Origin: Deltaproteobacteria bacterium
GTDB lineage: Bacteria; Myxococcota; JACPTQ01
Assembly: GCA_016192705.1 (NCBI GenBank)
Contig: JACPTQ010000014.1
Span: 15,503-79,502, forward strand
DNA length: 64,000 bases
Direction of reading: 5' to 3'
The notes beneath the pieces are model-generated. The model was not told where the DNA came from, did not search any database, and worked only from the letters and a program-made list of their open reading frames with translations. This document shows, in pieces, positions 10,022 to 53,142 of the stretch. Both the position numbers and the translations under genes were made by a program. Within the stretch, counting starts at the first letter, position 1; each line of letters begins with the position of its first letter.

Positions 10022-13000
10022 CTAGTTCTCGGTGCCGGGGATTCTCGCGTTGAGCGGCGGCGCTTGGTCGGGGATGTTGTCGACGCGTATCATGCCGCGG
10101 TTGTAGCAGGTGACATAGAGTGAGCGCGCGCGACCCGCGAGCGTCGATTTGTCGAACGTCGCTGCGGCGGCGCGGCAGCCAAAGTCGCGGTCGTCGGCAA
10201 GGCGGCTCCATGTGACGCCATCGAACGTCGCGAAGACGCCGGTGTTGCCAACGGCGAAGCGCGTGCGTGGCTCGTCGGCGACGAAGACCATGTCGGTCAA
10301 GAGCGCCGAGAGTCCGCCCACGCCGTAATCGCGCTCGACCCAGGCTTCTGTCGCGCGCGACTCGGGGTTTCCATACGGGGCGCCGACGAGCGTTGCGAGG
10401 TTTTCGAGCGAAGCGACGCGCGTCCAGGTGCGGCCGCCGTTTTGCGTGATTTTGATCCCGGCGGGGCACGCCCCAGAGCCCGGGTCGTCGATGTAGACCA
10501 TCGCGCTGTTGTACGGGTTTACGAAAAAGCTTGAGACCGCGCACGCTCCGTTGGTGCCAGGGCTCGCCGTGTTAACGACCTTCAAGACGCTCGTCCAGCT
10601 GCCCATGTTCGCGATTCGAAGGAGGTCGCCGCTGCGCGTCCAAGCGTAGTTGACCGGATTCGCGTGCCCGCCGGCTGGTTGGACGATCGCGGTGTCGGCT
10701 GGAAGTCCGCTCGCGACGACACCCCACCGGTTGGTGTAAGGCGTGCTCGGGCAGGCCGCGGTGTTTCGATCGGCGTCGATCACTTGCGCGCGGAAAAGCG
10801 TGACGCCGTCGGGCGCCGGACGGCTGCCATTCGGCTCATAGTAATCGAGCATCACGAGATCCGCGGCAAGCGGGCAGCCGGAGACCGTGCCGGTCGTTGT
10901 GGGAATTTCGGCCGGTAGCGTCTGGATGACGTGGCGATTTCCCCAGCCCCAGATGGGGGGCGCCGACGTTGCGCCATCGGGCGCGGCGACGAACGGCACG
11001 CTGTAGAATCGAACGCCACCGCCGATGTCGCGCGAACCGAAGGCCGGTGTACAGCCGGGTGTGTTCGAGCCGACGCACCACTGGTAAGGAGCGGTCGGGT
11101 AACGGCCGTTCGTGGCGAAGATGCCGAAGCTCGACGATCCGCGGGGGTGATCGACTTGGACGACGCGATCCGCGGCGGCTGGGTGGGCGTCGGCCATGAA
11201 GCGGCCACAGTCGCCGCACGTTCCCGTTTCGCCGGTCCAGTTTGTTGCGGGGTCGGGGTTGGAGGAGCTGTCCCAACTTGTGGGCGGTGAGTCTGGGTTT
11301 ACGTAGAAGTAGTCGTTGTCCTGCGTGCCGGAGTAGTGCGCGGGGCGAGACGCGCCTGGGCGTGAAAGCGTCGCACCGCCCGTCATCCAAAGTGTCCCGA
11401 GACCGCGGCCGGATGCGGGTTTTGTCGCGAAAGGCGAGAGGTTGCAACCGGGTGTGAGGAGGCCGAAGAGCGTTTTCGGGCACGTGCGGATCGTTCCTGC
11501 GGGCGAGGCGTAAAGGCCGCCGTCGTTCGCGACGAACGCGCGGCCCGCGGTGTGGATGAGGCTCGCGTTTGCGCAGGCGGCGCGGCGCGATGCGGCGCAC
11601 CCGGGCTGGATGGCGAACGTTGCGGCGAAATCGTCCGATACGTAGACGTCGTGCGGATCGACGTGGATGAAGAGTGGCGCATCGCCTTCGGCCGGGTTTT
11701 GGCCGTCAAGGCGCGCCCAGCGGCCGAGTTGCGGCGCGGCCGGTGAGTCGATGGGGGGGAGGCCGTCATGAACGTGAACGGTCGTCGCGTCGGCGAAAAA
11801 GAGGTAAAAGCCGGTGCCGCTCGGCTTTCGCGTCGCGAGGATTGCGGGTCGTCCGGAAGGCGTCGCTTGTCCGAAGTAACTCGGCGGCGACGCGAGAGGC
11901 GATGACGCCCATCGAACGACGCGCGCGGCTGGGTCGAAGGACCCCATCCAAAGCCCGGCCTCGCCGCAGCCGAGATTCGCGGACGCGGCGGCTGGGCACT
12001 CGGCTGGCGCACCGCGGGGCGGGTTAACGGGGGCACCGCAGCGCGTCCCTTCAATTTGGCATGCGTCGAAGTACCGTGGGCCGCGCGAGGTGTTGGCGAG
12101 TGTGACGACTATCGTTCCGGGGGTTGTGGGGGGGGTGGCGAGGGCATGGGGGGCACCGGTCCAGCTGCAGCCGTACGCGCGATTGGGACCGAGGCCGAAG
12201 TTCGTCGTGAACGTCGCGCCGCTGTCGATCGAAACGGCGAATCCCGCGGCCCCGCACGCGTAAACGCGATTTCCCGTCGTCGTGCGTTCGGAAACGGCGA
12301 TGTAGTTGAGCGCGGGACGACCGCCGTTGGGGGCGCGCCCGACTTCCGTCCAGTTGCGTCCCCCATTGCGGCTGACGGCGAGCCCGCACGATCCCGCGGC
12401 GAACACGGTGTTCGGGTCGTCGGGTGCAAAGCGAACTTGGGTGACGACGGCGCCCTTACCGCAACTCGGCATGTACGTCGGCATCCACGTACGTCCCGCG
12501 TCGTTCGAAGTCCAGACGCCGCCTGCGTACGACTTGAGGAAGCCGCTGTTCTCAAAGTCGCCGGTCGCGAGGAGAACGGTCGAGCCGTCGGCTGGCGTTG
12601 GTGAAACGGCGATTTCGTTGATCTGCGAAACCCCAGGCGAGAAAAAGGGCGATGTGAGGGGGTGGCGGCACGCGACCTTCGTGTTCGCTTGGCACCAGTT
12701 CGCGCCGTAGTCGTCGGAGCGCCAGAGTCCTGTTCGAAGGCCGGTTGCGTAGAGGCGACGGCCGCTTGGCGAGCCGCTCATCGCGCGGACCGGGCCCGCG
12801 AGTGACTGTCGAGCGGGGTCGCGGGTGCGCGACGCGGGGCCGACGTCGGTGATGGTGATGCGTGGGCGCGGTGACGTCGGGGACGGCTCATGCTCGCGCG
12901 GAAGGGCGACGTGGGTTTGCGGCGTCGGGCGGAGTGCGTCGGTGCTCGCGCGCGTCTCGGGTGAGCCGTCACCACAGGCGACGACGGCGAGAAGAAGCGA

Positions 13001-13042
13001 AATCAGCTTGAGAGAAGCGGTTGTTGGTCGTCGTGATGGCAT
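10022..13042 (-). CDS. large BNR/Asp-box repeat lipoprotein (sialidase / glycosidase-like beta-propeller)
   Basis: Lipoprotein-type signal (MPSRRPTTASLKLISLLLAVVACGDG) and several Asp-box motifs S-x-D-x-G-x-T-W (WRSDDYGANW, TSNDAGRTW, SRNGGRNW, SIDSGATF, TQNGGRTW). Start chosen at the internal ATG preceding the signal peptide. Confidence 0.6.
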   Translation of the reverse strand: MPSRRPTTASLKLISLLLAVVACGDGSPETRASTDALRPTPQTHVALPREHEPSPTSPRPRITITDVGPASRTRDPARQSLAGPVRAMSGSPSGRRLYATGLRTGLWRSDDYGANWCQANTKVACRHPLTSPFFSPGVSQINEIAVSPTPADGSTVLLATGDFENSGFLKSYAGGVWTSNDAGRTWMPTYMPSCGKGAVVTQVRFAPDDPNTVFAAGSCGLAVSRNGGRNWTEVGRAPNGGRPALNYIAVSERTTTGNRVYACGAAGFAVSIDSGATFTTNFGLGPNRAYGCSWTGAPHALATPPTTPGTIVVTLANTSRGPRYFDACQIEGTRCGAPVNPPRGAPAECPAAASANLGCGEAGLWMGSFDPAARVVRWASSPLASPPSYFGQATPSGRPAILATRKPSGTGFYLFFADATTVHVHDGLPPIDSPAAPQLGRWARLDGQNPAEGDAPLFIHVDPHDVYVSDDFAATFAIQPGCAASRRAACANASLIHTAGRAFVANDGGLYASPAGTIRTCPKTLFGLLTPGCNLSPFATKPASGRGLGTLWMTGGATLSRPGASRPAHYSGTQDNDYFYVNPDSPPTSWDSSSNPDPATNWTGETGTCGDCGRFMADAHPAAADRVVQVDHPRGSSSFGIFATNGRYPTAPYQWCVGSNTPGCTPAFGSRDIGGGVRFYSVPFVAAPDGATSAPPIWGWGNRHVIQTLPAEIPTTTGTVSGCPLAADLVMLDYYEPNGSRPAPDGVTLFRAQVIDADRNTAACPSTPYTNRWGVVASGLPADTAIVQPAGGHANPVNYAWTRSGDLLRIANMGSWTSVLKVVNTASPGTNGACAVSSFFVNPYNSAMVYIDDPGSGACPAGIKITQNGGRTWTRVASLENLATLVGAPYGNPESRATEAWVERDYGVGGLSALLTDMVFVADEPRTRFAVGNTGVFATFDGVTWSRLADDRDFGCRAAAATFDKSTLAGRARSLYVTCYNRGMIRVDNIPDQAPPLNARIPGTEN

Positions 13043-13200
13043 TGGGCCTCCTTGCTGTGGAAAGCCGAAAAAGCAAACGCGGGACCGGCCAGAATCCCGC
13101 GTAACATCGCGCACGTGACGCGCGACGAAGTGCGATCGTTGATCGCGAATGGGGGAGAATTGATCGGGGTTGGGCGCCGTCGCGAATGCGCCCGTCGGCG

Positions 13201-14223
13201 TCAGGCGCCCACGACGAGCACGACTTTCCCGATGTTTCGCCGTTCTTGAATGTAGCGGTGCGCCAGGGAGGCCTCGCCCATCGGAAAGGTTCGGTCGACG
13301 CGTGGACTCAGCTTGCCGTCGCGCACCCACGCGAGAATCTGGTCGAGGTCACGCGCGAGCGAGTCGGGGTTTTTGATGGCGAAGTGATTCATGTTGATGC
13401 CGAGCACGGCGCGGTTTTGGTTCATGAGCGAAACTGGATGAAACCGGGGCATACCGAGGAGCGTTTTTAATGCGCTCCAGATGCTGCGCCGCTCGCCCGT
13501 GACCATCGACGACACGCCGTACATCACGAGGCGGCCGCCGTGTTTGAGAATGCGCGCGCCCTTTTTGAGCGACGAGCCGCCCTGCGAATCGAGAACGACG
13601 TCGACGCCGACGCCATTTGTGAGGCGCATGACTTCGGCCTCGAAATCTTGCGAGCGGTAATCAATAACGTGCGCAACCCCTTGTCCCACAAGGAAATCGC
13701 GCTTGGCCGCCGACGCCGTGCCGATCACCGTCGCGCCCGCGATTCGACAAAACTCGATCGCCGCAAGCCCGACGCCGCCAGCGGCCGCGTGCACAAGAAC
13801 CGTCTCTCCCGCCTTGACGGTCGTCGCACCGAACAGCCCGCGGTACGCCGTCAGGTAAACCACGGGAATTGACGCCGCTGTCGCATCGTCGCATCCGTCC
13901 GGAATGGCCCGCACCGCGCGTGCATCGGCAACGGCGAGCTCCGCGTAGCCCCCGAACATGACGGGCGCGACCACGCGAATCCCCGCGGGAAGCCCGTGCT
14001 CGGGGAGCGCGTTGACCAGCGTCCCCGCGACCTCGTACCCCAGAATCATCGGGCGTGGCGGCGCATCGGGGTAAAGCCCAAGCCGCGCGACGATGTCCGC
14101 GAAGTTGACGCCCGCGGCGCGGACGCGAATCAGCGCCTGGCCCGCTTTCGGCACGGGATCGGGCGCGTCGGCGACCTCGAGTCGCTCGGGCGGACCGAAC
14201 TTGCGAACGACCACAGCTTTCAT
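13201..14223 (-). CDS. NAD(P)H-dependent quinone oxidoreductase-like protein (MDR superfamily, Zn-independent)
   Basis: MKAVVV..GxxE..V.AAGVNFAD.. and Rossmann AAGGVGLAAIEF motifs; start ATG 14223 overlaps the stop of the upstream UbiA gene (ATGA). Confidence 0.8.
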   Translation of the reverse strand: MKAVVVRKFGPPERLEVADAPDPVPKAGQALIRVRAAGVNFADIVARLGLYPDAPPRPMILGYEVAGTLVNALPEHGLPAGIRVVAPVMFGGYAELAVADARAVRAIPDGCDDATAASIPVVYLTAYRGLFGATTVKAGETVLVHAAAGGVGLAAIEFCRIAGATVIGTASAAKRDFLVGQGVAHVIDYRSQDFEAEVMRLTNGVGVDVVLDSQGGSSLKKGARILKHGGRLVMYGVSSMVTGERRSIWSALKTLLGMPRFHPVSLMNQNRAVLGINMNHFAIKNPDSLARDLDQILAWVRDGKLSPRVDRTFPMGEASLAHRYIQERRNIGKVVLVVGA

Positions 14224-35519: not shown

Positions 35520-35927
35520 ATGCGAAGCACCTGCTTGCTCGTCGCCGTCGCCGCGGCGGTGGCGTCGTGTAAATCTGGGGATGGGGGCGTGCGGGTTTCA
35601 CGCGAGGGGGTTGGGTATGCGCTGTCGCTGAGTCACGCGAAGACCGCGCCCAACCAATCGGCAGCGGCGAATCTGCGCGTTGTGGGACGCCAAGGCTTCA
35701 AGATAAACGTCCCGTATCCACATACGGTCGTGGAGTTTTCGACATCGGGCGGGGTTGACGTTCGGCCAACGTTTGACGCCCGCTGTGCCGTTTCAGGCGC
35801 GCGCGGGCGCGGGGACGGTGGGGGTGAGCGTTAAGTTCAGCGTGTGCAACGACACCGAGTGCCTCACCCCGACCGAGACGTTCGAGTGGAGGCCGCTCGA
35901 AAGTGAAACCCGAGCTCGCTGAGAAGA
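35520..35927 (+). pseudogene. DsbD-N (alpha-domain)-like lipoprotein with apparent frameshift
   Basis: Frame-3 ORF begins with lipoprotein-like signal MRSTCLLVAVAAAVASC. The C-terminal conserved block ..AGAGTVGVSVKFSVCNDTECLTPTETF.. (C-x5-C-x-(P/T)P, like DsbD alpha) is in frame 1 and ends at the TGA overlapping uvrC. The frames must be joined by an indel near 35735-35790. Confidence 0.4.
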
Positions 35928-37891
35928 TCGACCGGCTGCCCGAGTCGCCGGGCGTTTACCTCATGCGGGCGACGTCGGGCGACGTCGTTTACGTTGGGAA
36001 GGCGGTCCATCTTCGGGCGCGCGTGCGGTCGTATTTTCACCGGTCGGGCGACACGCGGGCGTTTGTGCCGATGCTCGGAGAGCTGCTTGGCGACATCGAA
36101 ACGATCGTCACGCGAACTGAGAAGGAGGCTCTGCTTCTCGAGCGGACGCTGATTGCGCGGCATCGCCCGCGATTCAATATTATTTTTCGCGACGACAAAT
36201 CGTATTTGTCGCTCAGGGTCGACAGCGCGCACGCATGGCCCCGCGTCGAGGCGGTGCGATCGCGAAACGTCGTCTTGCGTGCGGAGGGGGACGCGGCGAG
36301 GCACTTTGGGCCGTATCATTCGGCGACGTCGATTCGCGAAACGCTGAGCTTGTTGAATCGGCACTTTCAGTTGCGCACCTGTTCGGATTATGAACTCGCG
36401 CATCGCAAGCGGCCGTGCATTCAATACGACATCAAGCGGTGCCCCGCGCCGTGCGTGCTGCCGGTTGACGGAGGCGAGTATCGGGCGCGCGTCGAAGAAA
36501 CGATTCTCTTTTTGAGCGGGCGCGGGCGAGAGCTGCTTGACCAGCTTCTGGCGCGAATGAAGGACGCGTCGGAAGCGCTCGAGTTCGAACGGGCGGCGCA
36601 GATTCGCGACCAGATATCGGCCGTGGAGCGGTCTCTCGAGCGTCAGGCGGCGATCCTTGAGGCGCGCGTCGACACCGATGTCTTCGCGCTCCATCGCGAG
36701 GGGGACGTGGGCGAGGGCGCCGTATTGTTTGTGCGCGCGGGGCAGCTTGTTGGCGCGAAGGCGTGGCCGCTCAAGGCGGTGGTGTTGCCCGACGACGAGG
36801 TGCTCGCGGGTCTGGTCGCCGCGCACTACAGCGCGACGCGCGATTTCCCGGAGGAGGTGTGGCTTCCGCGGGCGCTGTCGCCGGATGCGGTTGGGATTGA
36901 GGCGCTTGGTGAATGGTTGTCGGAGCGGAGTGGACGGCGCGTGCGCGTTATTGCGTGGGAGCGGGGCGAGCGACGGCGCGTGCTTGAGCTTGCGCTTGAG
37001 AATGCGCGGACAGCGTTCGCCGTGAGAATGTCGAAGACGGAGCGAAACCGCGAGGTGCTCGAGCGTGTAAGCGAGAAGCTGCACTTGCTGCGGCGGCCCG
37101 AGCGGATTGAGTGTTACGACATTTCGAATCTTCAGGGGACCGACATCGTTGGCGCGCGCGTTGTGTTTGTGCGCGGCGAGCCGTCGAGGGCCGATTATCG
37201 GCGGTACAAGGTACGCGGCGTCGCGGGGCAGGACGACTTTGCGGCGATGCGCGAGGTGCTAAGGAGAAGATTTGGGGAAAAGAGAAGAGAAACCACAGAG
37301 ACGCTGAGTTCACGGAGGTCGGAGGAGAAGAAAAAGAAGAATAGGACGGGAGCGGTTGCGGACAGCGCAAGCGGACTTCGGGATGCGGATGCTGGAGCCG
37401 GGTTGGAACCGTTGCCGGACCTTGTTGTGCTCGACGGTGGGCCGGGGCAACTCGGCGCGGGTGCGGCTGTGCTGAAAGATTTGGGCGTTACAGTGCCGAT
37501 CGTCGGGCTCGCGAAGGCGCGCGTAAAATCACGCGGCGCGACGAACGAACCCGAACAAACGGTCGAGCGCGTGTTTCTCGTGGGGCGGAAAAACCCGGTT
37601 GTCCTTCCGCCGGCGTCGCGCGAGCTGCAACTCCTCATGCGGATTCGGGACGAAACGCACCGGTTCGTGATCACGTTTCATCGGCATCGACGCGGGAAGG
37701 CCGCACGAACGTCGCGGCTCGAGGAGATTCCGGGCGTCGGTCGCGCCCGCGCGCGCGCCATCTTGCGCCACTTCGGGAGCTTGAAGCGGACGGAAGGTGC
37801 GACGATTGAAGAGTTTGCGCGGGTTCCCGGGATTTCGAAGCGTCTGGCGGCGCAGATTTCGCAGGCGCTTCGGCGCGGGGTAACTCAGTAA
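35903..37891 (+). CDS. uvrC: excinuclease ABC subunit C
   Basis: N-terminal GIY-YIG (PESPGVYLMRATSGDVVYVGKA), UvrBC-interaction and C-terminal HhH regions; GTG start. Contains a Lys/Arg-rich low-complexity insertion. Confidence 0.9.
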   Translation: MKPELAEKIDRLPESPGVYLMRATSGDVVYVGKAVHLRARVRSYFHRSGDTRAFVPMLGELLGDIETIVTRTEKEALLLERTLIARHRPRFNIIFRDDKSYLSLRVDSAHAWPRVEAVRSRNVVLRAEGDAARHFGPYHSATSIRETLSLLNRHFQLRTCSDYELAHRKRPCIQYDIKRCPAPCVLPVDGGEYRARVEETILFLSGRGRELLDQLLARMKDASEALEFERAAQIRDQISAVERSLERQAAILEARVDTDVFALHREGDVGEGAVLFVRAGQLVGAKAWPLKAVVLPDDEVLAGLVAAHYSATRDFPEEVWLPRALSPDAVGIEALGEWLSERSGRRVRVIAWERGERRRVLELALENARTAFAVRMSKTERNREVLERVSEKLHLLRRPERIECYDISNLQGTDIVGARVVFVRGEPSRADYRRYKVRGVAGQDDFAAMREVLRRRFGEKRRETTETLSSRRSEEKKKKNRTGAVADSASGLRDADAGAGLEPLPDLVVLDGGPGQLGAGAAVLKDLGVTVPIVGLAKARVKSRGATNEPEQTVERVFLVGRKNPVVLPPASRELQLLMRIRDETHRFVITFHRHRRGKAARTSRLEEIPGVGRARARAILRHFGSLKRTEGATIEEFARVPGISKRLAAQISQALRRGVTQ

Positions 37892-38493
37892 ACGAATTCG
37901 CTTGCAACGAAGGCGGCTCGCGCGCGGACGGCCGAGAGAAAGCGGCGCACCGCGGGGAATGGCGCGAAGTCGAAGCCGCCCGCGTCGAGTGCCGCGAGAA
38001 CGGCGCCGTAACAACAATCGACGAGGGTGAACGCGTTGCCGAGCATCCACGCGTGCGCGGTGAGGTTCGTGTTGATGATGTCGATCGGGCGCACGAGATC
38101 GGCGCGCGCTTTTTCGATCGCGGCGTCGTCGACGTTGCGCCCCGCGCGGCGAAGGACCGTTTCCGAAAACCAAACGGTGCCGATCCGTTCGGCGAGTGTG
38201 CTCGTTTCGTAAAAAAGCCAACGCGCGGCGTTTCCGCGTCCTTGTGCGTCTTGCGGCCAGAGGCGGGACTCGCGTTCACCGAGGTACGTCAAAATGGCGT
38301 TCGACTCCCAGAGCAGGAAGCCATCGTCGTCGAGAAGCGGCACTTTTCCGTTCGGGTTCAGCGCGCGAAAAGGCGGCTCGCGCTGTTCGCGTTTGAAAAG
38401 GTCGACTTCGATGCGCTCGTAGGGGATGCCGAGCTCCTCGAGCGCGAGGCGGCACTTCTGCGGATTAAACGACCAGTACCAATAGAGCTTCAT
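37885..38493 (-). CDS. glutathione S-transferase
   Basis: N-terminal thioredoxin-like MKLYWYWSFNPQKCRLALEELGIPYE and ESNAILTYL motif. Confidence 0.75.
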   Translation of the reverse strand: MKLYWYWSFNPQKCRLALEELGIPYERIEVDLFKREQREPPFRALNPNGKVPLLDDDGFLLWESNAILTYLGERESRLWPQDAQGRGNAARWLFYETSTLAERIGTVWFSETVLRRAGRNVDDAAIEKARADLVRPIDIINTNLTAHAWMLGNAFTLVDCCYGAVLAALDAGGFDFAPFPAVRRFLSAVRARAAFVASEFVY

Positions 38494-38605
38494 AGAATCA
38501 CGCGCGATGTCATTCGCTGTCGCTAACACGGCCGCGCGCGCGGTTCAACGTGACGACTTGGGTTGCCGTTTCGTCGGGGGCCGAGTTGGTGTAAAGAGGT
38601 GATTC

Positions 38606-39091
38606 ATGAGTGACAACATGAGTGCGTTTTGGGTGTTTGCAACCGAGATCGGAAACGTTGGGATCGCGTGGAGCGACGTGGGGGTGACGCGCGTTGAGAT
38701 CGCGACGACAGAGCGTACGACCGGCGCGGCACCAGCGTGGGTGAGGGGCGTTGCGGAAAAAATCCGCGGGCATTTTGCGGGACACGCGCAGGAGTTTAGC
38801 GAAGTGCCGCTCGATTGGAGCGCGGTGACGCCGTTTCGGCGGCGCGTTTACGAGGCGGCGCGGGCGATTCCGAGTGGCGCGACCGCGACGTACGGCGATG
38901 TTGCGCGCACGATCGGCGCGTCGGGTGCGGCACGCGCGGTTGGGCAGGCGCTCGGGAGGAATCCGTTCGGGATCATCGTGCCGTGTCATCGCGTGGTTGC
39001 AGCCGGCGGCAAGATGGGGGGGTTCTCGGCGCCGCGTGGCATTGAGCTCAAACGAAAGATGCTGGGCATTGAGGCGGCTTTCGAATGCTGA
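38606..39091 (+). CDS. ogt: methylated-DNA--protein-cysteine methyltransferase
   Basis: Active-site IVPCHRVV motif and HTH-like region. Confidence 0.85.
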   Translation: MSDNMSAFWVFATEIGNVGIAWSDVGVTRVEIATTERTTGAAPAWVRGVAEKIRGHFAGHAQEFSEVPLDWSAVTPFRRRVYEAARAIPSGATATYGDVARTIGASGAARAVGQALGRNPFGIIVPCHRVVAAGGKMGGFSAPRGIELKRKMLGIEAAFEC

Positions 39092-39699
39092 ACGGTCACG
39101 CGGGTGCGGTGCGTGCGCTCGCAAAGGCCGACCGCGATTTGGCGCGGCTTATGAAACGCGTCGGGCGGTGTCGGCTCGAAGTTGCGGAGATGCAGAGCCC
39201 GTTCGAGGCGCTCGCGGAAGCGATCGTGTACCAGCAGCTGACCGGGAAGGCGGCGGCAACGATTTTCGGCCGCGTGAAGGCGGTTGCGGGCGGAAAGCGT
39301 CTCAGGCCAGACGCGGTGCTCGCCGCGACCGATGAAGCGCTTCGCGGTGCGGGTTTATCGCGTGCGAAACTCGCGGCGCTCCGCGATTTGGCCGACAAAA
39401 CAAAAACAGGCGTTGTCCCTTCGTTCGCCGCGCTGAAACGCTTGGGCGACGACGCGATCGTTGAGCGCCTCACCTCGATTCGCGGTGTCGGCCGCTGGAC
39501 CGTCGAGATGCTCCTCATCTTTCGCTTGGGTCGCCCCGATGTATTGCCCACGGCCGATTACGGCATCCGCAAAGGATTTGCGCGCACGTTCGGCCTTTCG
39601 GATTTGCCGGCGCCGCGCGATGTCGCCGCCCGCGGTGAGCGCTGGCGCCCGCACCGCACCGTCGCCTGCTGGTATCTTTGGCGCTCGTTGGAGCTTTGA
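39085..39699 (+). CDS. alkA: DNA-3-methyladenine glycosylase II (HhH-GPD family, AlkA-like)
   Basis: HhH-GPD layout (..LTSIRGVGRWTVEMLLIF..); ATG overlaps ogt stop (ATGCTGA), so ogt-alkA are coupled. Confidence 0.7.
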   Translation: MLNGHAGAVRALAKADRDLARLMKRVGRCRLEVAEMQSPFEALAEAIVYQQLTGKAAATIFGRVKAVAGGKRLRPDAVLAATDEALRGAGLSRAKLAALRDLADKTKTGVVPSFAALKRLGDDAIVERLTSIRGVGRWTVEMLLIFRLGRPDVLPTADYGIRKGFARTFGLSDLPAPRDVAARGERWRPHRTVACWYLWRSLEL

Positions 39700-39774
39700 C
39701 ACCCCGGGCCGACTTGACGCGCCCGCGCATCCCCGCGAGACTTCCCGCGATCGACGCGTGCACGGAGGGACGTC

Positions 39775-41103
39775 ATGCGAAACAAAACCTTTCTGTTGAG
39801 TTCGCTGTTTTTAGCTGTAGCTGTGTCGGCGTCCGCGCTTGCGGGACCACCGGCCACTCACCGTTCGCGCGACATCGTTCGGCTTTACGGCGGTGAGGCG
39901 CACAAGGTTCCCAAGGGAAACATCGTCGCGGTGCTCGCGAACACGGTTTTTATTTTGGGCGAAAAACTCGCGATTCAAAAAGTCTTTCGATTCGATCCCG
40001 TCCACGTCGCGTCGGCCGGTGCGCCCGATCATGTCGAGGTCGTCGATCTCGATGCCGATGGCGAAGCGGAAATTCTTATTACCGGGAAACCCACGTACGT
40101 CGTGGATATGAAGGGTGAGCCGAAATTTCATGTCGCGGATCGCTGCGATGAAGTTTACGTTTACAAACACACCGTCGAGGCGAAGTCGCTCGTCTTGTGC
40201 TCGGCTGGGAATCGCGTTCAAGTTTGGCGTTGGGATGGCCAGAGATTGTGGGAGATGTCGTTTGCGAAAAAATCGCAGGTGCCGACGCGGTTCTCGTTCA
40301 AGGATTTCGATGGCGACGAGCAACCGGACGTTGAGTTCGAGCTCTTGCGCGCGAGGAAGGCGGTTTACCGCGTGGCGGGCGCGGCCGGGCGTTCGATTGG
40401 CGAGTATTCGGAGCGCGAGGCGCCGTTCGAGGATTTGGGTGCGCGGCGCGCTAAGCAGATCCAGAGCGAGCTCGCGTCGAAGCTCGATGTCGATTTCGGC
40501 GGCGACGGGAAAATTTGGAAGGTCGTGCTGGACGGCGGGACGCTTCGGTTGTTCGACCATGAAGAGGGCGTGCGCGGGAGCTTCAAGGTGCCGGGCGGCA
40601 AGGTGAGTGGAATGGTTTTGGCCGATATGGGCGGTGGCGGAAAGAAGAACTTGGTGGTTGCGCACGGGGCGTCCGTTACGTTGCTGGACGACGCGATGCA
40701 GGTCGTTGCGGCGGCGACGATCGATCCGAAGTCGATCGCGCGGTCGACGCACGTCAAGCTTGAGGCGGTGCATTTTCAGGGGTTTGCGGAGATGGGCGCT
40801 GTGCAAAAATATTTTCTCGACCATTTGGACGATCTCAAGTCGTGCTACAACGCGCGGCTCAAGAAGGACGGTGTTGCGCGACAGGGGAAGTTTATGGTCG
40901 AGGGCGCGACGCGTAAGGACGGCTCGGTTTCAAAGGTCGAGAAGGTGTTTAACGCGCTGGGGTACGGCGATGTTGAGAGCTGTCTTCTCGGGCGATTGAA
41001 GCGGTGGCGATTGCCGGAGCCGAAAGAGGGAACCGAGGGGAGTTTTTCGGCGACGATTTTCTTTTCGTGGCGCGACGAGGCGCGGGGCATGGCGAAGAAA
41101 TAG
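39775..41103 (+). CDS. secreted protein with AgmX/PglI-type Cys-containing C-terminal domain
   Basis: Signal peptide (MRNKTFLLSSLFLAVAVSASALA), SD GGAGG 8 nt upstream; C-terminal ..KSCYNARL..GKFMVEG..VESCLLGRLKRWRLPEP.. parallels the C-terminus of the 27749-29110 protein. Confidence 0.5.
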   Translation: MRNKTFLLSSLFLAVAVSASALAGPPATHRSRDIVRLYGGEAHKVPKGNIVAVLANTVFILGEKLAIQKVFRFDPVHVASAGAPDHVEVVDLDADGEAEILITGKPTYVVDMKGEPKFHVADRCDEVYVYKHTVEAKSLVLCSAGNRVQVWRWDGQRLWEMSFAKKSQVPTRFSFKDFDGDEQPDVEFELLRARKAVYRVAGAAGRSIGEYSEREAPFEDLGARRAKQIQSELASKLDVDFGGDGKIWKVVLDGGTLRLFDHEEGVRGSFKVPGGKVSGMVLADMGGGGKKNLVVAHGASVTLLDDAMQVVAAATIDPKSIARSTHVKLEAVHFQGFAEMGAVQKYFLDHLDDLKSCYNARLKKDGVARQGKFMVEGATRKDGSVSKVEKVFNALGYGDVESCLLGRLKRWRLPEPKEGTEGSFSATIFFSWRDEARGMAKK

Positions 41104-41116
41104 GTTCGGGCGCGAT

Positions 41117-41930
41117 TCAGTTCTTACACGGCTGGTCGCCGTGCGCGCCTGAAAGCGTTTGTTTTGTGTAAAGCTCGAAGTTGAAGCGGTCCGAATGTTC
41201 GGGCGTGTGGCACGGAGCGCATTTTTCCTTGGTGACTTTACACGCGATGCGCCCCGCGGCTTTTGGATTTGCCGCGTGAAGCGAGCCAGTCCCGTGGCAC
41301 GCTTCGCACTGAACATTGGTGAGCCCGGTGGTCGCGCCAATTTTCGATCCGAGCGGGGCCATATACGCCGTCACGTGGCAGCTCACGCAGTCGCCGTCGT
41401 GCTCCTTGCCGAGGGTGGTCAGGGTTTTCCACGCGCGCGCGTGCGCGGTTGTGAGCCACTGCGCGTGTTCGTCCGGGTGGCAACCGGCGCAAGTCGCGCC
41501 GTTCACGACGACCGCTTGTCCGCGTTTGGGCTCGGGCAGCTTCACGGAGGCAAAGTGCGCGACATTGATTTCGCCGACGCGGCGGTTGTACGCGGCGAGC
41601 TTTGCCGCCATGGCGTCGTTTCGAGGCCCGGTGCGCTCAAGCGGGACGAGCTCGTACGTGAAACCGTGGGCGTCGGGCGGCGGTTTTCGCGCCAACGCGG
41701 CGACGCGCCGTTCGGCCTCAAGCGCGCGCAAGCGTCCCTCGAATTCGACGAGCTTCTCTTGAAGCGCAACGGCATCGGCGGTTCGACCTTCGCGACGCGC
41801 GGCCCGCATCTTGTCGCGCGCGTTGACGACTTTTTTTTCGACGAGCGCGATGTCTGCGGGATCGGGCGGCGATAAATCGACGAAGCGTGTCGCGCCCGGT
41901 GTCTCGGTCAGCGTCAGGAGGCCGACGTGT
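41117..41930 (-). CDS. tetraheme c-type cytochrome segment (probably C-terminal part of a frameshifted larger gene)
   Basis: Four CxxCH heme-binding motifs (CAGCH, CVSCH, CEACH, CAPCH). No signal peptide in this frame; upstream track extension is Arg-rich junk. Confidence 0.5.
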
Positions 41931-41931
41931 T

Positions 41932-42615
41932 TCAGATCTTGTCCCGCTTGTAGACGCGTGCTTCTGGTGACGCGGCGTGCCCAGCCACCACGAAATCCGC
42001 GCCCGCATCTGTTCTCGCGAGGGCGCGAGCATCGGCCGCCGAGCCGTGAAAGAGACGAAGGGTCGCGGGCCCGATGCGCACGGTCGCATCGCGCGCGAAG
42101 GGACGCGAAAGTTTCAGCGCGTCGACAAGGAAAGCCTCGCCCGCCGCGAGATCGCTTTCGCCCACAACCCACTGCTTGATGCCGAGCGTCGACAGCGTGT
42201 CGAAAAGCGTCGCCGCTTTGAGCTTTGTTTGCGCCGCATTCAGCGAGGAAAGCTTCGCGCCGCTAAAAAGGGCGTCTCCAGCGCTGACGATTTCAACCGC
42301 AGCGAAACTCTCGCGAATCCGCTCGACCAGTGCCCCCAGGTAATCGACGCCGCCAAGCGGCTTCGATTGACAGCCACACGGCTCTAAGTAACCGCGAACG
42401 GATGTGAGCACGAGAACGGCGATGCGATCCGTTTTGAGGGGGAAGGCGCGGAGTGAAGCCCCTGCATCAGCGGGTCTGGTGTGCGCTGCCGGGTCGCTCA
42501 CATGCGTTAGGGGGATCGGCGCGTTCGGCTTGGATTTGCAACCGGCCACGATCACGAGCAATTGCACGACAACGTTGACGACAACGCGAGAAACGCGGAT
42601 GGAGGTTGCGAGCAC
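41932..42615 (-). CDS. lipoprotein with degenerate metallophosphatase-like domain (probably N-terminal part of the cytochrome gene)
   Basis: Lipoprotein signal (LLVIVAGCKS), weak GD/GH motifs. ORF stops at 41932 where the cytochrome frame becomes protein-like, offset by 1 nt. Confidence 0.35.
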   Translation of the reverse strand: MLATSIRVSRVVVNVVVQLLVIVAGCKSKPNAPIPLTHVSDPAAHTRPADAGASLRAFPLKTDRIAVLVLTSVRGYLEPCGCQSKPLGGVDYLGALVERIRESFAAVEIVSAGDALFSGAKLSSLNAAQTKLKAATLFDTLSTLGIKQWVVGESDLAAGEAFLVDALKLSRPFARDATVRIGPATLRLFHGSAADARALARTDAGADFVVAGHAASPEARVYKRDKI

Positions 42616-42619
42616 GCGG

Positions 42620-44419
42620 CTAGGCGTACATCTGGTCGAGGAGCGTCTGGTATTTTTCGGTCGTGAACTTCCGCTTCACTTTGAGCGTCGGCGTCAATTC
42701 GCCCGTGTCTTGCGCGAGATCGTGATCGAGGATCACAAACTTCTTGATCGATTCATACGACGCGAGCTCACGGTTTTTTTCCTCAATGACACCCTGAAGG
42801 AGCGCCCGAACCTCCGGCCGTTGCGAAAGCTCGGCGAAGCTCCCCGCCGAAATCCCTTGGTGCGCTGCCCACGCTTTCACATTCTCCTCGTTCAACGTGA
42901 TCAGCGCTGTGAGGTAATTTCGTTTGTCGCCGTGGACCATCACTTGGCTCACAAAGCGGCTCGTTTTCAGCGCGTTCTCGATGTTTTGCGGCGCGACGTT
43001 CTTCCCACCGGCCGTGACAATCAAATCCTTCTTGCGATCGGTGATCGTCAAGATCCCACTCTTATCGATGACGCCGATGTCGCCCGTGTGGAACCAACCA
43101 TCCGGCGTCAGGCACGCGCGCGTGTCGTCCGGCTTTTTATAGTATTCGCGCATGATGTTCGGCCCGCGCAAAAGCACCTCGCCGTCCTCCGCGATCTTGC
43201 AGTCGACGCCCGGGAGCGCCGGCCCGACCGACCCGAAGCGATACATGTCGAGTCGATTGACGTGCGACGCGGCCGTCGTTTCGGTGAGCCCAAACCCTTC
43301 GAGGATGAGGAGCCCAGCCGCATGAAAGAACTCGGCGATCTCGCGCGACAATGGGGCGCCGCCCGACACGAAGAATTTGAGGTTGCCGCCGAATCGCGCC
43401 TGCAGCTTTGAGAAGACGAGCTTCGTCGCAATCTTGTATTTGAAGGCGAGCCACCCCGTCGGCAGATCGCCGCGCTGCTTCATCACCGAAACCTCGCGCC
43501 CGACCTTAACGGCCCAATCGAAAATCTTCTTTTTGAGGCCACCCGCGGTTTCCACGTCGCCTTTGACTTTGCCGTACACCTTCTCGTAAATGCGCGGCAC
43601 CGACGCCAAGAACGTCGGCCGAATCTCGCCGACGTTGTCGATCAACTTTTCAATCGACTCGGCGAACGCGATCATCGAGCCCGTTTGAATCGACGCGAAC
43701 ACCAAGATCTTCGCGAAGATGTGTGCGAGCGGCAAAAACAACACTTGCTCGTCGTCTTCGCCGAGCGTCAGCGCTTGGTTAACCGCGTCACACTCGAACA
43801 CGAAATTCGCGTGCGTCAAGACGACGCCCTTCGGCGGGCCCGTTGTTCCTGATGTGTAAACGAACGTGATCGGATCGCCGGGCTTAATCGCCGACGTGCG
43901 CGCTTCAAACTCCGCGCTGTGCGCAACGCCATACTCCGCGCCGCGATTCAGAAAGTCGGCGTAGCCCACGACCCACGCCGCATCGACGCCGTTCCCGACG
44001 GTTCCCGAGACCAAGATGACCTTCTCAACCGACTTGAGGTTGCCGCGAATCTTTTGGAGCTTCGCCAGCTGCGCCGCATCTTCCGCGACGACGTACCGCG
44101 ACTCCGAATCGTTCAAAATATATTCACACTGATCCGGTGTGTTCGACTGGTAAATCGGCACCGTGATGCCGCCCGCGCCGATAATGCCGAAATCCGATTC
44201 GACCCACTCCGCGCGCGAGTTCGACAGAATCGCAACGCGATCGCCCGCCTTCATGCCGGTCGCCATGAGCGCGAGCGAAAAGTTCTTTGACGTTTGCGCC
44301 CACTGATTCCACGTTACGGCGCGCCACTGCCCGTCGACCTTTTTCTTGAGCGCAATTCGATCGCCACTTGTCGCGACGCGGCTCTTGAACACCTCGAACA
44401 TATTTCGTGCGGTTGCCAT
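42620..44419 (-). CDS. long-chain-fatty-acid--CoA ligase (AMP-binding superfamily)
   Basis: AMP-binding signature YTSGTTGPPKGVVLTHANF and C-terminal adenylate-forming domain. Confidence 0.85.
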   Translation of the reverse strand: MATARNMFEVFKSRVATSGDRIALKKKVDGQWRAVTWNQWAQTSKNFSLALMATGMKAGDRVAILSNSRAEWVESDFGIIGAGGITVPIYQSNTPDQCEYILNDSESRYVVAEDAAQLAKLQKIRGNLKSVEKVILVSGTVGNGVDAAWVVGYADFLNRGAEYGVAHSAEFEARTSAIKPGDPITFVYTSGTTGPPKGVVLTHANFVFECDAVNQALTLGEDDEQVLFLPLAHIFAKILVFASIQTGSMIAFAESIEKLIDNVGEIRPTFLASVPRIYEKVYGKVKGDVETAGGLKKKIFDWAVKVGREVSVMKQRGDLPTGWLAFKYKIATKLVFSKLQARFGGNLKFFVSGGAPLSREIAEFFHAAGLLILEGFGLTETTAASHVNRLDMYRFGSVGPALPGVDCKIAEDGEVLLRGPNIMREYYKKPDDTRACLTPDGWFHTGDIGVIDKSGILTITDRKKDLIVTAGGKNVAPQNIENALKTSRFVSQVMVHGDKRNYLTALITLNEENVKAWAAHQGISAGSFAELSQRPEVRALLQGVIEEKNRELASYESIKKFVILDHDLAQDTGELTPTLKVKRKFTTEKYQTLLDQMYA

Positions 44420-49565: not shown

Positions 49566-49907
49566 ATGAAAAAGGTGTCGGGGGATAGCGTGATTAATCG
49601 GTTTTTTGACCAGGTTCGGCAGAGCTGGGCCGATGCGGGTGAGTTCGCCCAATCGGTTAAGGAGCGTATTTGGAGTGGGCCGGAGGCGAGGCGCGTTCGT
49701 GCCCTCGCGATTCCGGCCGCGCCGAGCGCGACGCTTGTCGACAAGGCCAAGGCGTCGGTTGCGCTGACGCTCATCGGTGTTTTTGCTGGAATCGCGATTG
49801 CGTCGCTGTCGACCCTCGTGACGTCGCTGATTTTTATTTACTTGTTGGTTACGCGTGTCCTCGGGATTCGCATCGACCTCGACCCTGAGGCGATGCCCAA
49901 GTTCTGA
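49566..49907 (+). CDS. small hypothetical membrane protein (single C-terminal TM helix)
   Basis: 113-codon ORF with hydrophobic C-terminal segment ALTLIGVFAGIAIASLSTLVTSLIFIYLLV; no obvious SD. Confidence 0.35.
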   Translation: MKKVSGDSVINRFFDQVRQSWADAGEFAQSVKERIWSGPEARRVRALAIPAAPSATLVDKAKASVALTLIGVFAGIAIASLSTLVTSLIFIYLLVTRVLGIRIDLDPEAMPKF

Positions 49908-49920
49908 GACGGAGGCTAGG

Positions 49921-52900
49921 ATGAAAAAAGTTTTTGCCGCGGTGGGTTTCGTTGTCTGTGCGGTCTTCTTGGGTGCGTGCGAAGACGCGGCGCAAGTGGG
50001 TGGCCCCGCTGTGCGGCCATGCACGCAGGACCCCGATTGCCCGTCGGGGCAGGTGTGTGGTGCAGCGCGGCGATGCGAGCCGGTGGCGCGCGTGGTTGAC
50101 GCGGGGCCGGGCGCGGATGCGGATGCAGGGGCGGTTGCGGATACGGATGCCGGGGCGGTTGCGGATACGGATGCGGGTGCGGAGGCGGATGCGGGGGTGG
50201 TTGTGGACGCGGGTCCCGTCGGCGGCGCGTTCGGCACGTCGTGCACGCTCGACAGCGATTGCGAATCAGGGCTCTGCGTTGGGGAGCAACCGGAACCGGG
50301 CGTGTGTACGCAGTTTTGCGGCGATTGTCCGCTTGGGTGGACGTGTCGCGGGATTACGACACGCGGCGGCTCGCAGACCGCGTTTGTCTGCACGCCAATG
50401 GCACAAACGGTTTGTCGCGTCTGTTCGACCGATGGTGACTGCGGCTCGGGGACGCGTTGCCGCGACGTGCTTGGGGAGAAACGATGTTTGCAAGCGTGTG
50501 ATGCGGTGAGCTGCACGGGCGCGGCGTATACGTGCGTTGAATCGGCGTCACCGACGAATCCAGCGGCGACCGAGAAAAACTGCGCGCCGACGTCGGGGTC
50601 GTGCGTGCCGTGCACCGATAAAGATGGCGATGGGTATGGTGTCGGAACGGCGTGTCTGGGAGTCGATTGCAACGACAACGACCCGAACATCCATCCCGCG
50701 GCGGTCGAGGTCTGCGACGGAATCGACAACAACTGCAACAGCCAGACGGACGAGGGTTTCGACTTGCAGAGCGACCCGGCGAACTGCGGGGTGTGCGGTA
50801 CAACGTGCGACACGGGGCGTGGGCAGGCGTGTTGCGCGGGGGCGTGCGTCGCGCTTGGTTCGGCGATCGCGAATTGCGGCGCGTGCGGGGTTTCGTGTGT
50901 GGGCGTCGGCGCGGCGTGTTGCGGGGGCGGTTGCACGACGACGGTGTCGAACGCGGCGAACTGCGGGGCGTGTGGGCGCGCGTGTGACGTGGTTGCGGGC
51001 GAGATTTGCTGCGGGAGCGGGTGCGTCAATCGGCTGAACGACGACCAGAATTGCGGCGCGTGCGGAAACGTTTGCGGCGCGAACGAGAAGTGTTGTGGCG
51101 GAACGTGCACCGACGTTAAGGCGAACGCGGCGGCGTGCGGCGCGTGCGGTGTGACGTGCGATACGACCGCGGGCGAAGCGTGTTGTGACGGCGCGTGTAA
51201 GAACACGAAGACGGAGCACGATTTCTGCGGTTCGTGCACGACGGCGTGTGGCACGAGCGATTCGTGTTGCGCGGGGAGTTGTGCCGATCCGCAATCGGAT
51301 GAGGCCAACTGCGGTGGCTGTGGTGTGAAGTGCCCAGCGGGTGGGCTTTGTTGCGGTGCGGGGTGCGTCGATCCGTCGACGGACGTTGCGAATTGCGGGG
51401 CGTGCGGTGCGGCGTGTGCGTCGGGGAGTTTGTGCTGCCCGACGGGTGGCGCGGCGCCCGCAGGAACGTGTCGCGATCCGCAGAACGATGTCAACAACTG
51501 CGGTGGGTGCGGAAACGTCTGCGCGGCCGGCCAGACGTGCTGCGGGGGCGGTTGCAAGGACCTCCTCGCTGATGCGAACAACTGTGGGACGTGCGGAAAT
51601 GCGTGCGCGACGGGGCAAACCTGTTGTGGTGGCGCGTGCGTCGATCCGAACCTCGATGCCCCGAACGCGTCGGCGCCTTTTGATGACGCGAATTGCGACG
51701 GCGTCGATGGTGTCGCGGCGAAGTCAATTTTCGTCGATGCGCTGACGTCGTGCTCGCTGAACCTTGGCACGAAGGCGTGCCCAATGAAGACGATTCAAAT
51801 GGCGATCAACGTTGCCGCCGCATCGCTTGTGACCGCGACGCCCAAGGCGAGTGTCCTCGTTTCAGCGGCGACGTACAACGAGTCGCTTACGCTCAAGCGC
51901 GGTGTGAGCGTTTACGGTGGTTACAGCGCGACGCAGAATTGGGCGCGGAGCGCGAGCAACGTCGTCACAATCAACGGTGGGACGACCGCCGTTCGGACCG
52001 ATTCGGCGCAGACATTTAATGTTGCGACGGTGTTCGATCGCTTCACGATTCTTTCGGCCTCGAACACATCGCCGGGTGGCGCGTCGATCGGCGTGCTCGT
52101 GAAGAACGCGACGAGTGCGCTGGTTTTGCGAAACTTGACGGTGCAGGCCGGGAACGGTGGAAACGGGACCGACCAATCGTCGACGCGCGCGGCGACGGGC
52201 GATTCGGGCGGTGACGGGAACACGGGCGGCAACGGCGCGGAGGATTGCTCGCAGTCGGGTGCGGGACGCGGCGGCACGGGTGGATGGAGTTCGTGCGGAC
52301 GGTCGGGCGGGCGTGGTGGCTATGCGGCGTGCGGCTGGGCGATTGGCGAGACGGGGCCGAGCGGGACGGGGTCGTACCCGGGTTATGGCGGAAGTGGTGG
52401 TGCGGGCGGGAATCCGACGGGGTGGCCGAGCTGCAGCTCGACGACGTACGGCGCGGGCGGGAACGCGGGATCGAATGGGCGCGACGGGAGCGATGGGGTT
52501 GCGGGGAGCGGAACCGGCGTCGTGAATTCGAGCGGCGATTGGGTGGCGTCGAATGGAACGCCGGCGACATCGGGCACGTCGGGCGGCGGCGGTGGTGGCG
52601 GCGGTGGCGGTGGCGGTGGGGCGTCGACGCATTCGTGCGACTTCTGGTGTTCGCTCGGAATCTGCGATGACAACTTGGGCGGCGGTGGCGGTGGTGGTGG
52701 AGCGGGAGGCTGTTCCGGGAACGCGGGCGCGAGTGGCGGCGGCGGTGGCGGCTCGTTCGCGATTTATTTGTGGAACGCGTCGCCCACGGTGCAGTCGGTC
52801 GTCGGGCGCGCCGGGACCGGTGGCAAGGGCGGGCGCGGGCAGTCGGGCGGTTGGGGCGGATGGGGTGGCATCGGGCGGAGCGGGGGCTCGAAGGCGCCAG

Positions 52901-53142
52901 ACGACGACGGCGGCGGCGGTGGAAAGGGCGGAAACGGCGGTAGCGGTGGCAATGGCGGTTATGGCGCGGGCGGTGGCGGTGGGCCGTCGTACGGGCTCTT
53001 CCGCGCGAACGCGGCGTCGGCGCCGACGTTGTCCGGGAACAGTTGGGTCAAGGGGATCGCTGGAGCCGGAGGCTATGGGCCGGCGTCGAACAGTGGCGCG
53101 ACCGGCGTCGCGTCGAGCTGTAACGCCGGAACCTGCAATTAG
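49921..53142 (+). CDS. giant cysteine-rich repeat lipoprotein (MopE-like metal-binding motif, at least 10 tandem NCGxCG..CC.G.C repeats, Gly-rich C-terminus)
   Basis: SD GGAGG 5 nt upstream; lipoprotein signal [20 protein letters not shown]; motif [41 protein letters not shown]; about ten ~30-aa repeats; C-terminal region of poly-Gly runs. Confidence 0.65.

Follow-up and report, generated by a model that had tools for sequence, protein, structure and literature searches.

By its sequence, the region at 41117-42615 on the minus strand of the window (the whole stretch of 64,000 nucleotides that was analysed) is a single broken gene of the 'UshA-like (seleno)protein' type. The break is probably a real and recent deletion in this strain, which would make the locus a young pseudogene.

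Layout of the locus

ORF A occupies 42615 to 41932 on the minus strand and encodes 227 amino acids, with a GTG start codon at 42613-42615 and a TGA stop codon at 41932-41934 (both taken from the ORF list). The start codon is located 5 nt past the stop of the gene for an AMP-binding acyl-CoA ligase (42620-44419), and the gene call on an independent Logan contig (L162) uses the identical start. In the ancestral gene, the start codon and the lipoprotein signal peptide (MLATSIRVSRVVVNVVVQLLVIVAG) correspond to 42541-42615 (minus strand), based on the ORF list and on the n-region, h-region and lipobox read from the sequence. Arg7 and Arg10 are located in the n-region, and the signal peptide is directly followed by a cysteine (…LLVIVAG, then C). 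The lipobox V-A-G-C is present at 42538-42549 (minus strand), with the codon of the lipidated Cys26 at 42538-42540; this motif was also read from the sequence. The lipoprotein call is based on the pattern [LVI][ASTVI][GAS]C, a rule applied by eye, and ORF A has the trait which characterises bacterial lipoproteins, a signal peptide ending in a lipobox, as the preliminary description of this DNA had proposed. A Cys right behind the signal is also seen in many homologues in the alignment. The remainder of ORF A contains, at 41956-42477 (minus strand, frame A), an N-terminal domain of the UshA/5'-nucleotidase fold which is catalytically degenerate. This domain was recognised by tblastn, the NCBIfam model NF041198, Foldseek and the family profile, and is 72% identical to residues 63-233 of the closest homologue, P0001 (tblastn).

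The second reading frame (frame B) is open on the minus strand from 42172 to the stop codon at 41117-41119, and it is offset from ORF A by 1 nt modulo 3, since (42615-42172) mod 3 = 2. Its upstream stretch is Arg-rich nonsense, and it resembles a real protein from 41953 downwards. The part at 41495-41953 (minus strand, frame B) comprises the end of the N-terminal domain, a long helical linker and a small beta domain, and is 82% identical to P0001; in the AF2 secondary structure this part has two helices (274-297 and 303-328) and a strand (337-346). The part at 41120-41494 (minus strand), directly before the stop codon, is a cytochrome c554-like tetraheme domain, based on PF13435 and on the family profile against 1bvb. 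Frame B contains exactly four CxxCH motifs: CAGCH (41477-41491), CVSCH (41375-41389), CEACH (41294-41308) and CAPCH (41207-41221); these are the four that had been reported earlier for the downstream frame. Pfam Cytochrome_C554 (PF13435) matches frame B with 50.3 bits (E 4.8e-13) against a cut-off of 20.8, and the assignment to this family is based on a score above the gathering threshold together with the four motifs. The tblastn identity between frame B and P0001 is 82% over 285 amino acids. Because of the Pfam score and this identity, the coding character of frame B is not due to chance.

Concerning the start of the cytochrome part, no signal peptide is found from any in-frame start codon of frame B, in line with the earlier claim that the cytochrome segment has none of its own. 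The only in-frame start codons are the GTG at 42172 (MGCGRKRSRGGRGF…), whose Arg-rich product is an out-of-frame read of the N-terminal domain, the ATG at 41809 (MRAARREGRT…), and later ones which lie within the domain.

Comparison with the UshA-like (seleno)protein family

The COG0737 'UshA-like, CxU' selenoprotein family was first listed from ocean metagenomes with no function given (PMC2398784), and the listing of the CxU selenoproteins was repeated in later reviews, again with no function (PMC9312934, PMC13188914). The corresponding NCBIfam model is NF041198, 'UshA-like (seleno)protein' (UshA_like_PCGU; 519 positions), which matches both halves of the locus: profile positions 25-127 match residues 66-167 of ORF A (60 bits) and positions 316-519 match frame B (129.9 bits). 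Intact homologues match the model end to end (positions 17-518) with 169-254 bits, the closest intact relative having 209. The curated equivalog cut-off of 275 bits is reached neither by the two halves in the window nor by these intact relatives, and the window gene is a homologue outside the curated equivalog which shares the NF041198 architecture. The likeness extends from end to end (signal peptide, UshA fold, P-C-G-[C/U], linker and four-haem c554-like domain); the four-haem domain is present with all its motifs, but in the other frame and behind a stop. The window gene differs from NF041198 in having the Cys form rather than Sec, in the shortened N-terminal domain and the loss of the motif I Asp (features of the clade of the window and P0001), in its interruption and in its scores under 275 bits.

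A search with the joined sequence found 75 proteins which carry both parts, nearly all of them 435-627 amino acids long. Together with the JGI contig L001, the 160 loci which were fetched (80 each from the genome and metagenome sets) gave 161 related loci for comparison, and a frame change within the gene is seen in none of these 161. Five of them match in two frames, and each of the five represents separate copies. The closest relative is P0001 (523 amino acids, on L001), which is 76% identical, uninterrupted and syntenic. No closer relative is found in genome_contigs and metagenome_contigs, where all others have at most about 44% identity, and tblastn with P0001 found no second intact paralogue in the window.

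Judging from these homologues, the cytochrome domain and the N-terminal domain were clearly in one polypeptide ancestrally. The preliminary description had read the two ORFs as one gene, and this reading holds, given the matches of both halves to NF041198, the 75 two-part proteins and the absence of frame changes at the 161 loci. The search for homologues which it had suggested found both parts in one protein and in one frame, and not as separate genes with a signal peptide on the cytochrome. The secreted fusion of a phosphoesterase-like domain with a tetraheme cytochrome which it proposed is supported by the fused homologues, in the form of a lipoprotein fusion with a phosphoesterase fold. 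The intact product would have about 505 amino acids, and its lipoprotein signal suggests Sec export and lipid anchoring.

The lesion

When the DNA of the window is aligned with L001, a single gap of 25 nt is seen on the window side, and its position coincides exactly with the frame switch. At the lesion site (41954-41955, minus strand) the window has two bases, GT, versus 27 nt (nine codons, AEAVGGSFI) in L001, a net deletion of 25 nt: L001 reads GAA GCG CGC, then GCC GAG GCC GTT GGC GGT TCG TTC ATC, then TTG CAG GCC GGG, whereas the window reads GAA GCA CGC, then GT, then CTA CAA GCG GGA. By tblastn, the frame -2 match covers residues 63-233 of P0001 and stops at 41956, and true identity is found again in frame -1, beginning with residue 243 at 41953; nothing in the window corresponds to the residues between, 234-242 (AEAVGGSFI). 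The homology in frame A therefore ends at 41956 with …VVAGHAASPEAR, and that in frame B begins at 41953 with LQAGQDLKHVG…. The lesion falls just beyond 41925-41950, the span proposed earlier for the inspection of reads. The '1-nt frameshift' of the preliminary description is correct as regards the offset of the frames (1 nt modulo 3), but the event itself is a net 25-nt deletion relative to L001. It had also placed the stop of ORF A at 41932, where the other frame turns protein-like, and this is confirmed, the homology switching about 20 nt upstream of the stop.

The deletion takes out nine codons which form two core beta strands and moves the downstream part to another frame. In the AlphaFold model of P0001 (pLDDT 83, pTM 0.78) residues 234-242 span the strand 235-237 and the beginning of the strand 240-244, and each of the 30 aligned homologues, the closest one among them, keeps the missing segment. 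Translation from the true start ends at 41932 after seven wrong residues, at the premature TGA of the out-of-frame read-through (…EAR-VYKRDKI and stop; 41932-41934, minus strand, from the ORF list and the reading of the frame). The product as written would be a lipoprotein of 227 amino acids without the last strands of its domain. The cytochrome part, without a start or a signal peptide, would not get to the periplasm, the site of haem attachment. Attachment of c-type haem needs export and, because the cytochrome part has neither start nor signal peptide, the gene as written is probably non-functional.

An older, tolerated in-frame deletion of 24 nt, followed by the loss or miscall of one T (GTC TTA CAA to GTC TAC AA), is an improbable origin of the gap; its second step would be the 1-nt frameshift of the preliminary description. 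The pairwise alignment can be redrawn with gaps of 24 nt and 1 nt within three bases, and the clade of the window and P0001 is already without other N-domain segments which are present in the rest of the family. However, two independent events would have to be adjacent (about 6 in 1500 if the position within the gene were random), and they would affect a segment which is conserved throughout the aligned homologues and which comprises core beta strands in the AlphaFold model of P0001.

A functional split, either by programmed -1 ribosomal frameshifting or by separate expression of two proteins, is extremely improbable. The two frames overlap, as frame B is open from 42172, and a shift in the overlap would join them; but no slippery heptamer of the type X XXY YYZ was seen in the frame-A codons 42000-41932 (read by eye), the homology changes frame exactly at the deletion and not at a slip site, and the reading frame runs on unchanged in the nearest relative and at each of the 161 loci. 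The shifted product would also still be without the two core strands. Concerning expression of the cytochrome part on its own, a plausible start, a Shine-Dalgarno sequence and a signal peptide are all missing, and export is required for its haems. Both programmed frameshifting and independent cytochrome expression were rejected because no slip site, start codon or signal peptide was found.

It is also highly improbable that a real deletion has left the 227-amino-acid P-C-G-C lipoprotein in use as a stand-alone protein, or that ribosomes bridge the gap to give a shortened fusion. If either were true, the locus would be a natural experiment which parts the Cys-x-Cys domain from the haem wire.

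Age and reality of the break

Relative to L001, dN/dS is 0.07 in the N-terminal part and 0.12 in the C-terminal part, which indicates strong purifying selection in both, with 0.54-0.74 synonymous differences per site. No further stop or frameshift is found in the 275 codons downstream of the break. As neither half has further damage and both are strongly conserved, the break is either recent or an artefact, with a single close relative (P0001/L001, 76% identical) as the outgroup for dating it.

A genuine recent deletion is the likelier of the two. An artefact of the assembly or consensus is possible but rather doubtful; the gene of the organism would in that case be intact, with about 505 codons, and the gap would stem, for example, from low coverage or from the collapse of strain variants. 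The absence of other decay in the gene and the strong purifying selection fit an artefact. Coverage also appears to be low, because the per-run contigs of the strain measure only 2-6 kb and adapter sequence is found at the end of one, and the junction is confirmed by no independent contig, the Logan contigs ending at 42193, 41813, 41551 and 41406. Against an artefact, four Logan contigs from three Illumina (Nextera) runs (SRR12113390, SRR12113426 and SRR12113428), which came from look-ups with the two neighbouring genes, match the window at 100% identity at 44551-42193 and at 35859-41813, i.e. over about 8.3 kb on both flanks, and because of this identity base accuracy here is high. Clean 25-nt deletions without a repeat are rarely made by short-read assemblers, and a gap of this length is atypical of indels from base calling and makes a real mutation more likely. 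The indel rate is low, as shown by the long ORFs of 600-1100 amino acids which are intact throughout the window and make an indel-prone assembly less likely.

The greedy ORF map shows no obvious excess of broken genes in the window, and GC3 is not discriminating as a frameshift flag at its GC content of 62.6%. No junction pattern accepting the deleted or the undeleted allele is present in metagenome_contigs. The exact products of ORF A, of the 351-amino-acid frame-B ORF and of its ATG-started version of 230 amino acids have no entry on record.

One of the Logan contigs, L163 (SRR12113390_2455522), ends at 5956-5974 (about 41814-41832 of the window) in CTGTCTCTTATACACATCT, which is the Nextera transposase adapter. 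This unmatched tail of 19 nt was considered as a variant of the locus and was ruled out on account of its adapter origin.

Fold, catalytic motifs and the P-C-G-C site

UshA, CD73, SoxB and the periplasmic 5'-nucleotidases are calcineurin-like metallophosphoesterases with a dimetal site. No Pfam domain, Metallophos included, is found on ORF A. The N-terminal UshA/5'-nucleotidase-fold domain of the NF041198 architecture is present, with structural evidence from the close homologue P0001: Foldseek finds CD73, the Thermus 5'-NT and E. coli UshA at E 1e-9 to 1e-7, and the family profile matches 2z1a (6e-21) and SoxB (5e-14). The term 'degenerate metallophosphatase-like', used for this domain in the preliminary description, is apt, as NF041198 is matched and the fold and profile matches are 5'-nucleotidases.

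In the alignment to 2z1a and 5h7w, the motifs D-x-H, G-D, G-N-H-[DE] and G-H-x-H have been lost except for GD. Motif I (NDTH) is aligned to t-d-l-k-G in the family and is TSVRG in the window; GNHEFD is aligned to GeaDlarG in the family and is GESDLAAG in the window; and the GGH of motif V is aligned to vvg, with GH absent. The window gene shares the N-domain fold of the 5'-nucleotidases, UshA, CD73 and SoxB and keeps the GD of motif II, but it is without the motif I His, the motif III Asn-His (GNHE to G-E-S-D) and the motif V GH-x-H, and their C-terminal substrate-binding domain is replaced by the linker and the cytochrome. An active calcineurin-like metallophosphoesterase or 5'-nucleotidase (COG0737) was not recognised in the window gene, the catalytic motifs being gone apart from GD. 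Phosphoesterase activity is not expected, because the metal-binding and catalytic motifs are lost, Metallophos is not matched and the substrate-binding domain has been replaced.

The length of the N-terminal domain differs within the family: in the clade of the window and P0001, and partly in the group of P0018, P0019, P0024 and P0037, about 50-90 of its residues are missing (columns 260-357 of alignment A2). In the former clade the motif I Asp is also replaced (TSVRG versus D-L-x-G), yet the dN/dS of the N-terminal domain is 0.07.

The family signature P-C-G-C (CCG TGT GGC TGT) is located at 42370-42381 (minus strand); in the window the second Cys is the Cys form (TGT) and not TGA. It represents the P-C-G-[Cys/Sec] motif which NF041198 has behind its first beta strand. 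The four residues P, C, G and C do not vary among 43 aligned sequences, and the signature falls directly after the 'HLEP' of metallophosphatase motif I in 2z1a, i.e. in the former active site. At the second Cys, TGA is found in about 49 of the 161 relatives (40 of 40 read-through cases, and nine with an ORF restart after PCG-TGA), and 103 of the 161 loci have the C-G-C form. The TGA forms agree with the CxU selenoproteins listed in the literature (PMC2398784, PMC9312934, PMC13188914). Switching between Cys and Sec is frequent and is found across phyla; selenocysteine forms are seen, for example, at L030, L033, L038, L050, L057 and L146 (…EPCG, stop codon, PK…). At five loci (L030, L096, L101, L106 and L124) the tblastn match contains one extra in-frame stop beyond the Sec codon; possible causes are a further broken copy, an additional Sec site or a fault of the alignment.

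Concerning the tetraheme domain, Nitrosomonas europaea cytochrome c554 (CycA; PDB 1bvb/1ft5) also has four CxxCH motifs, whose order and spacing class agree with those here, and the family profile matches 1bvb at E 2.7e-24. It is a free soluble carrier, whereas here the cytochrome forms the C-terminal part of a larger lipoprotein. With the NF043010 equivalog the score is 31.5 bits against a cut-off of 400, and the gene neighbourhood contains no link to hydroxylamine oxidation. In the intact protein the four haems would pass electrons to or from the Cys-x-Cys/Sec site. The protein is predicted to be a lipid-anchored periplasmic redox enzyme, on the basis of motif conservation and domain fusion.

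Gene neighbourhood

The part of the window at 35903-41103 (plus strand) contains DNA-repair genes: UvrC (35903-37891), an MGMT-type methyltransferase (DNA_binding_1) and an HhH-GPD glycosylase (39085-39699). A GST gene is found among them on the opposite strand. A secreted protein of 442 amino acids with a faint FG-GAP match (39775-41103, plus strand) converges on the broken gene, with a gap of 13 nt between the two. The neighbourhood on L001 matches that of the window (a gene of 453 amino acids, HhH-GPD and MGMT), with the order conserved.

When the neighbouring ORFs were clustered over the 161 loci, the recurrent ones were housekeeping genes only. The rimM-trmD-rplS genes are divergent and adjoin the family gene at about 41 of the 161 loci, and NadA-like, RlpA-like and acyl-CoA dehydrogenase genes are located downstream at 12-18 of the 161. 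No conserved redox or maturation partner gene is found across the 161 loci, and the window shares none of the neighbours which recur among them.

Elsewhere in the window, two ORFs at 10022-13330 (minus strand) and 49855-53142 (plus strand), of 1102 and 1095 amino acids, have a GC content at the second codon position of 0.62 and 0.67, respectively, versus about 0.45-0.5 for the other long ORFs. These two may encode repeat or low-complexity proteins, or may be shadow ORFs.

Implications for annotation and for the family

The locus is a disrupted member of a family which is known already and is defined by computation, and it does not represent a new kind of gene. Concerning its annotation, 41117-42615 should be entered as one disrupted gene (as a pseudogene or as 'frameshifted, check reads') and not as two hypothetical proteins, and the cytochrome should not be counted as a working electron carrier of the organism. 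The UshA-like CxC/CxU tetraheme lipoproteins are widespread, the genome set containing at least 534 loci and the metagenome set at least 533. Their hosts are mostly Myxococcota, and members are also found in Krumholzibacteriia, Acidobacteriota, Nitrospirota and Latescibacterota. The wider interest is in this family rather than in the locus: it is a candidate for a new class of periplasmic redox enzymes, in which four haems are fused to a phosphoesterase fold that is catalytically dead and has a Cys/Sec site.
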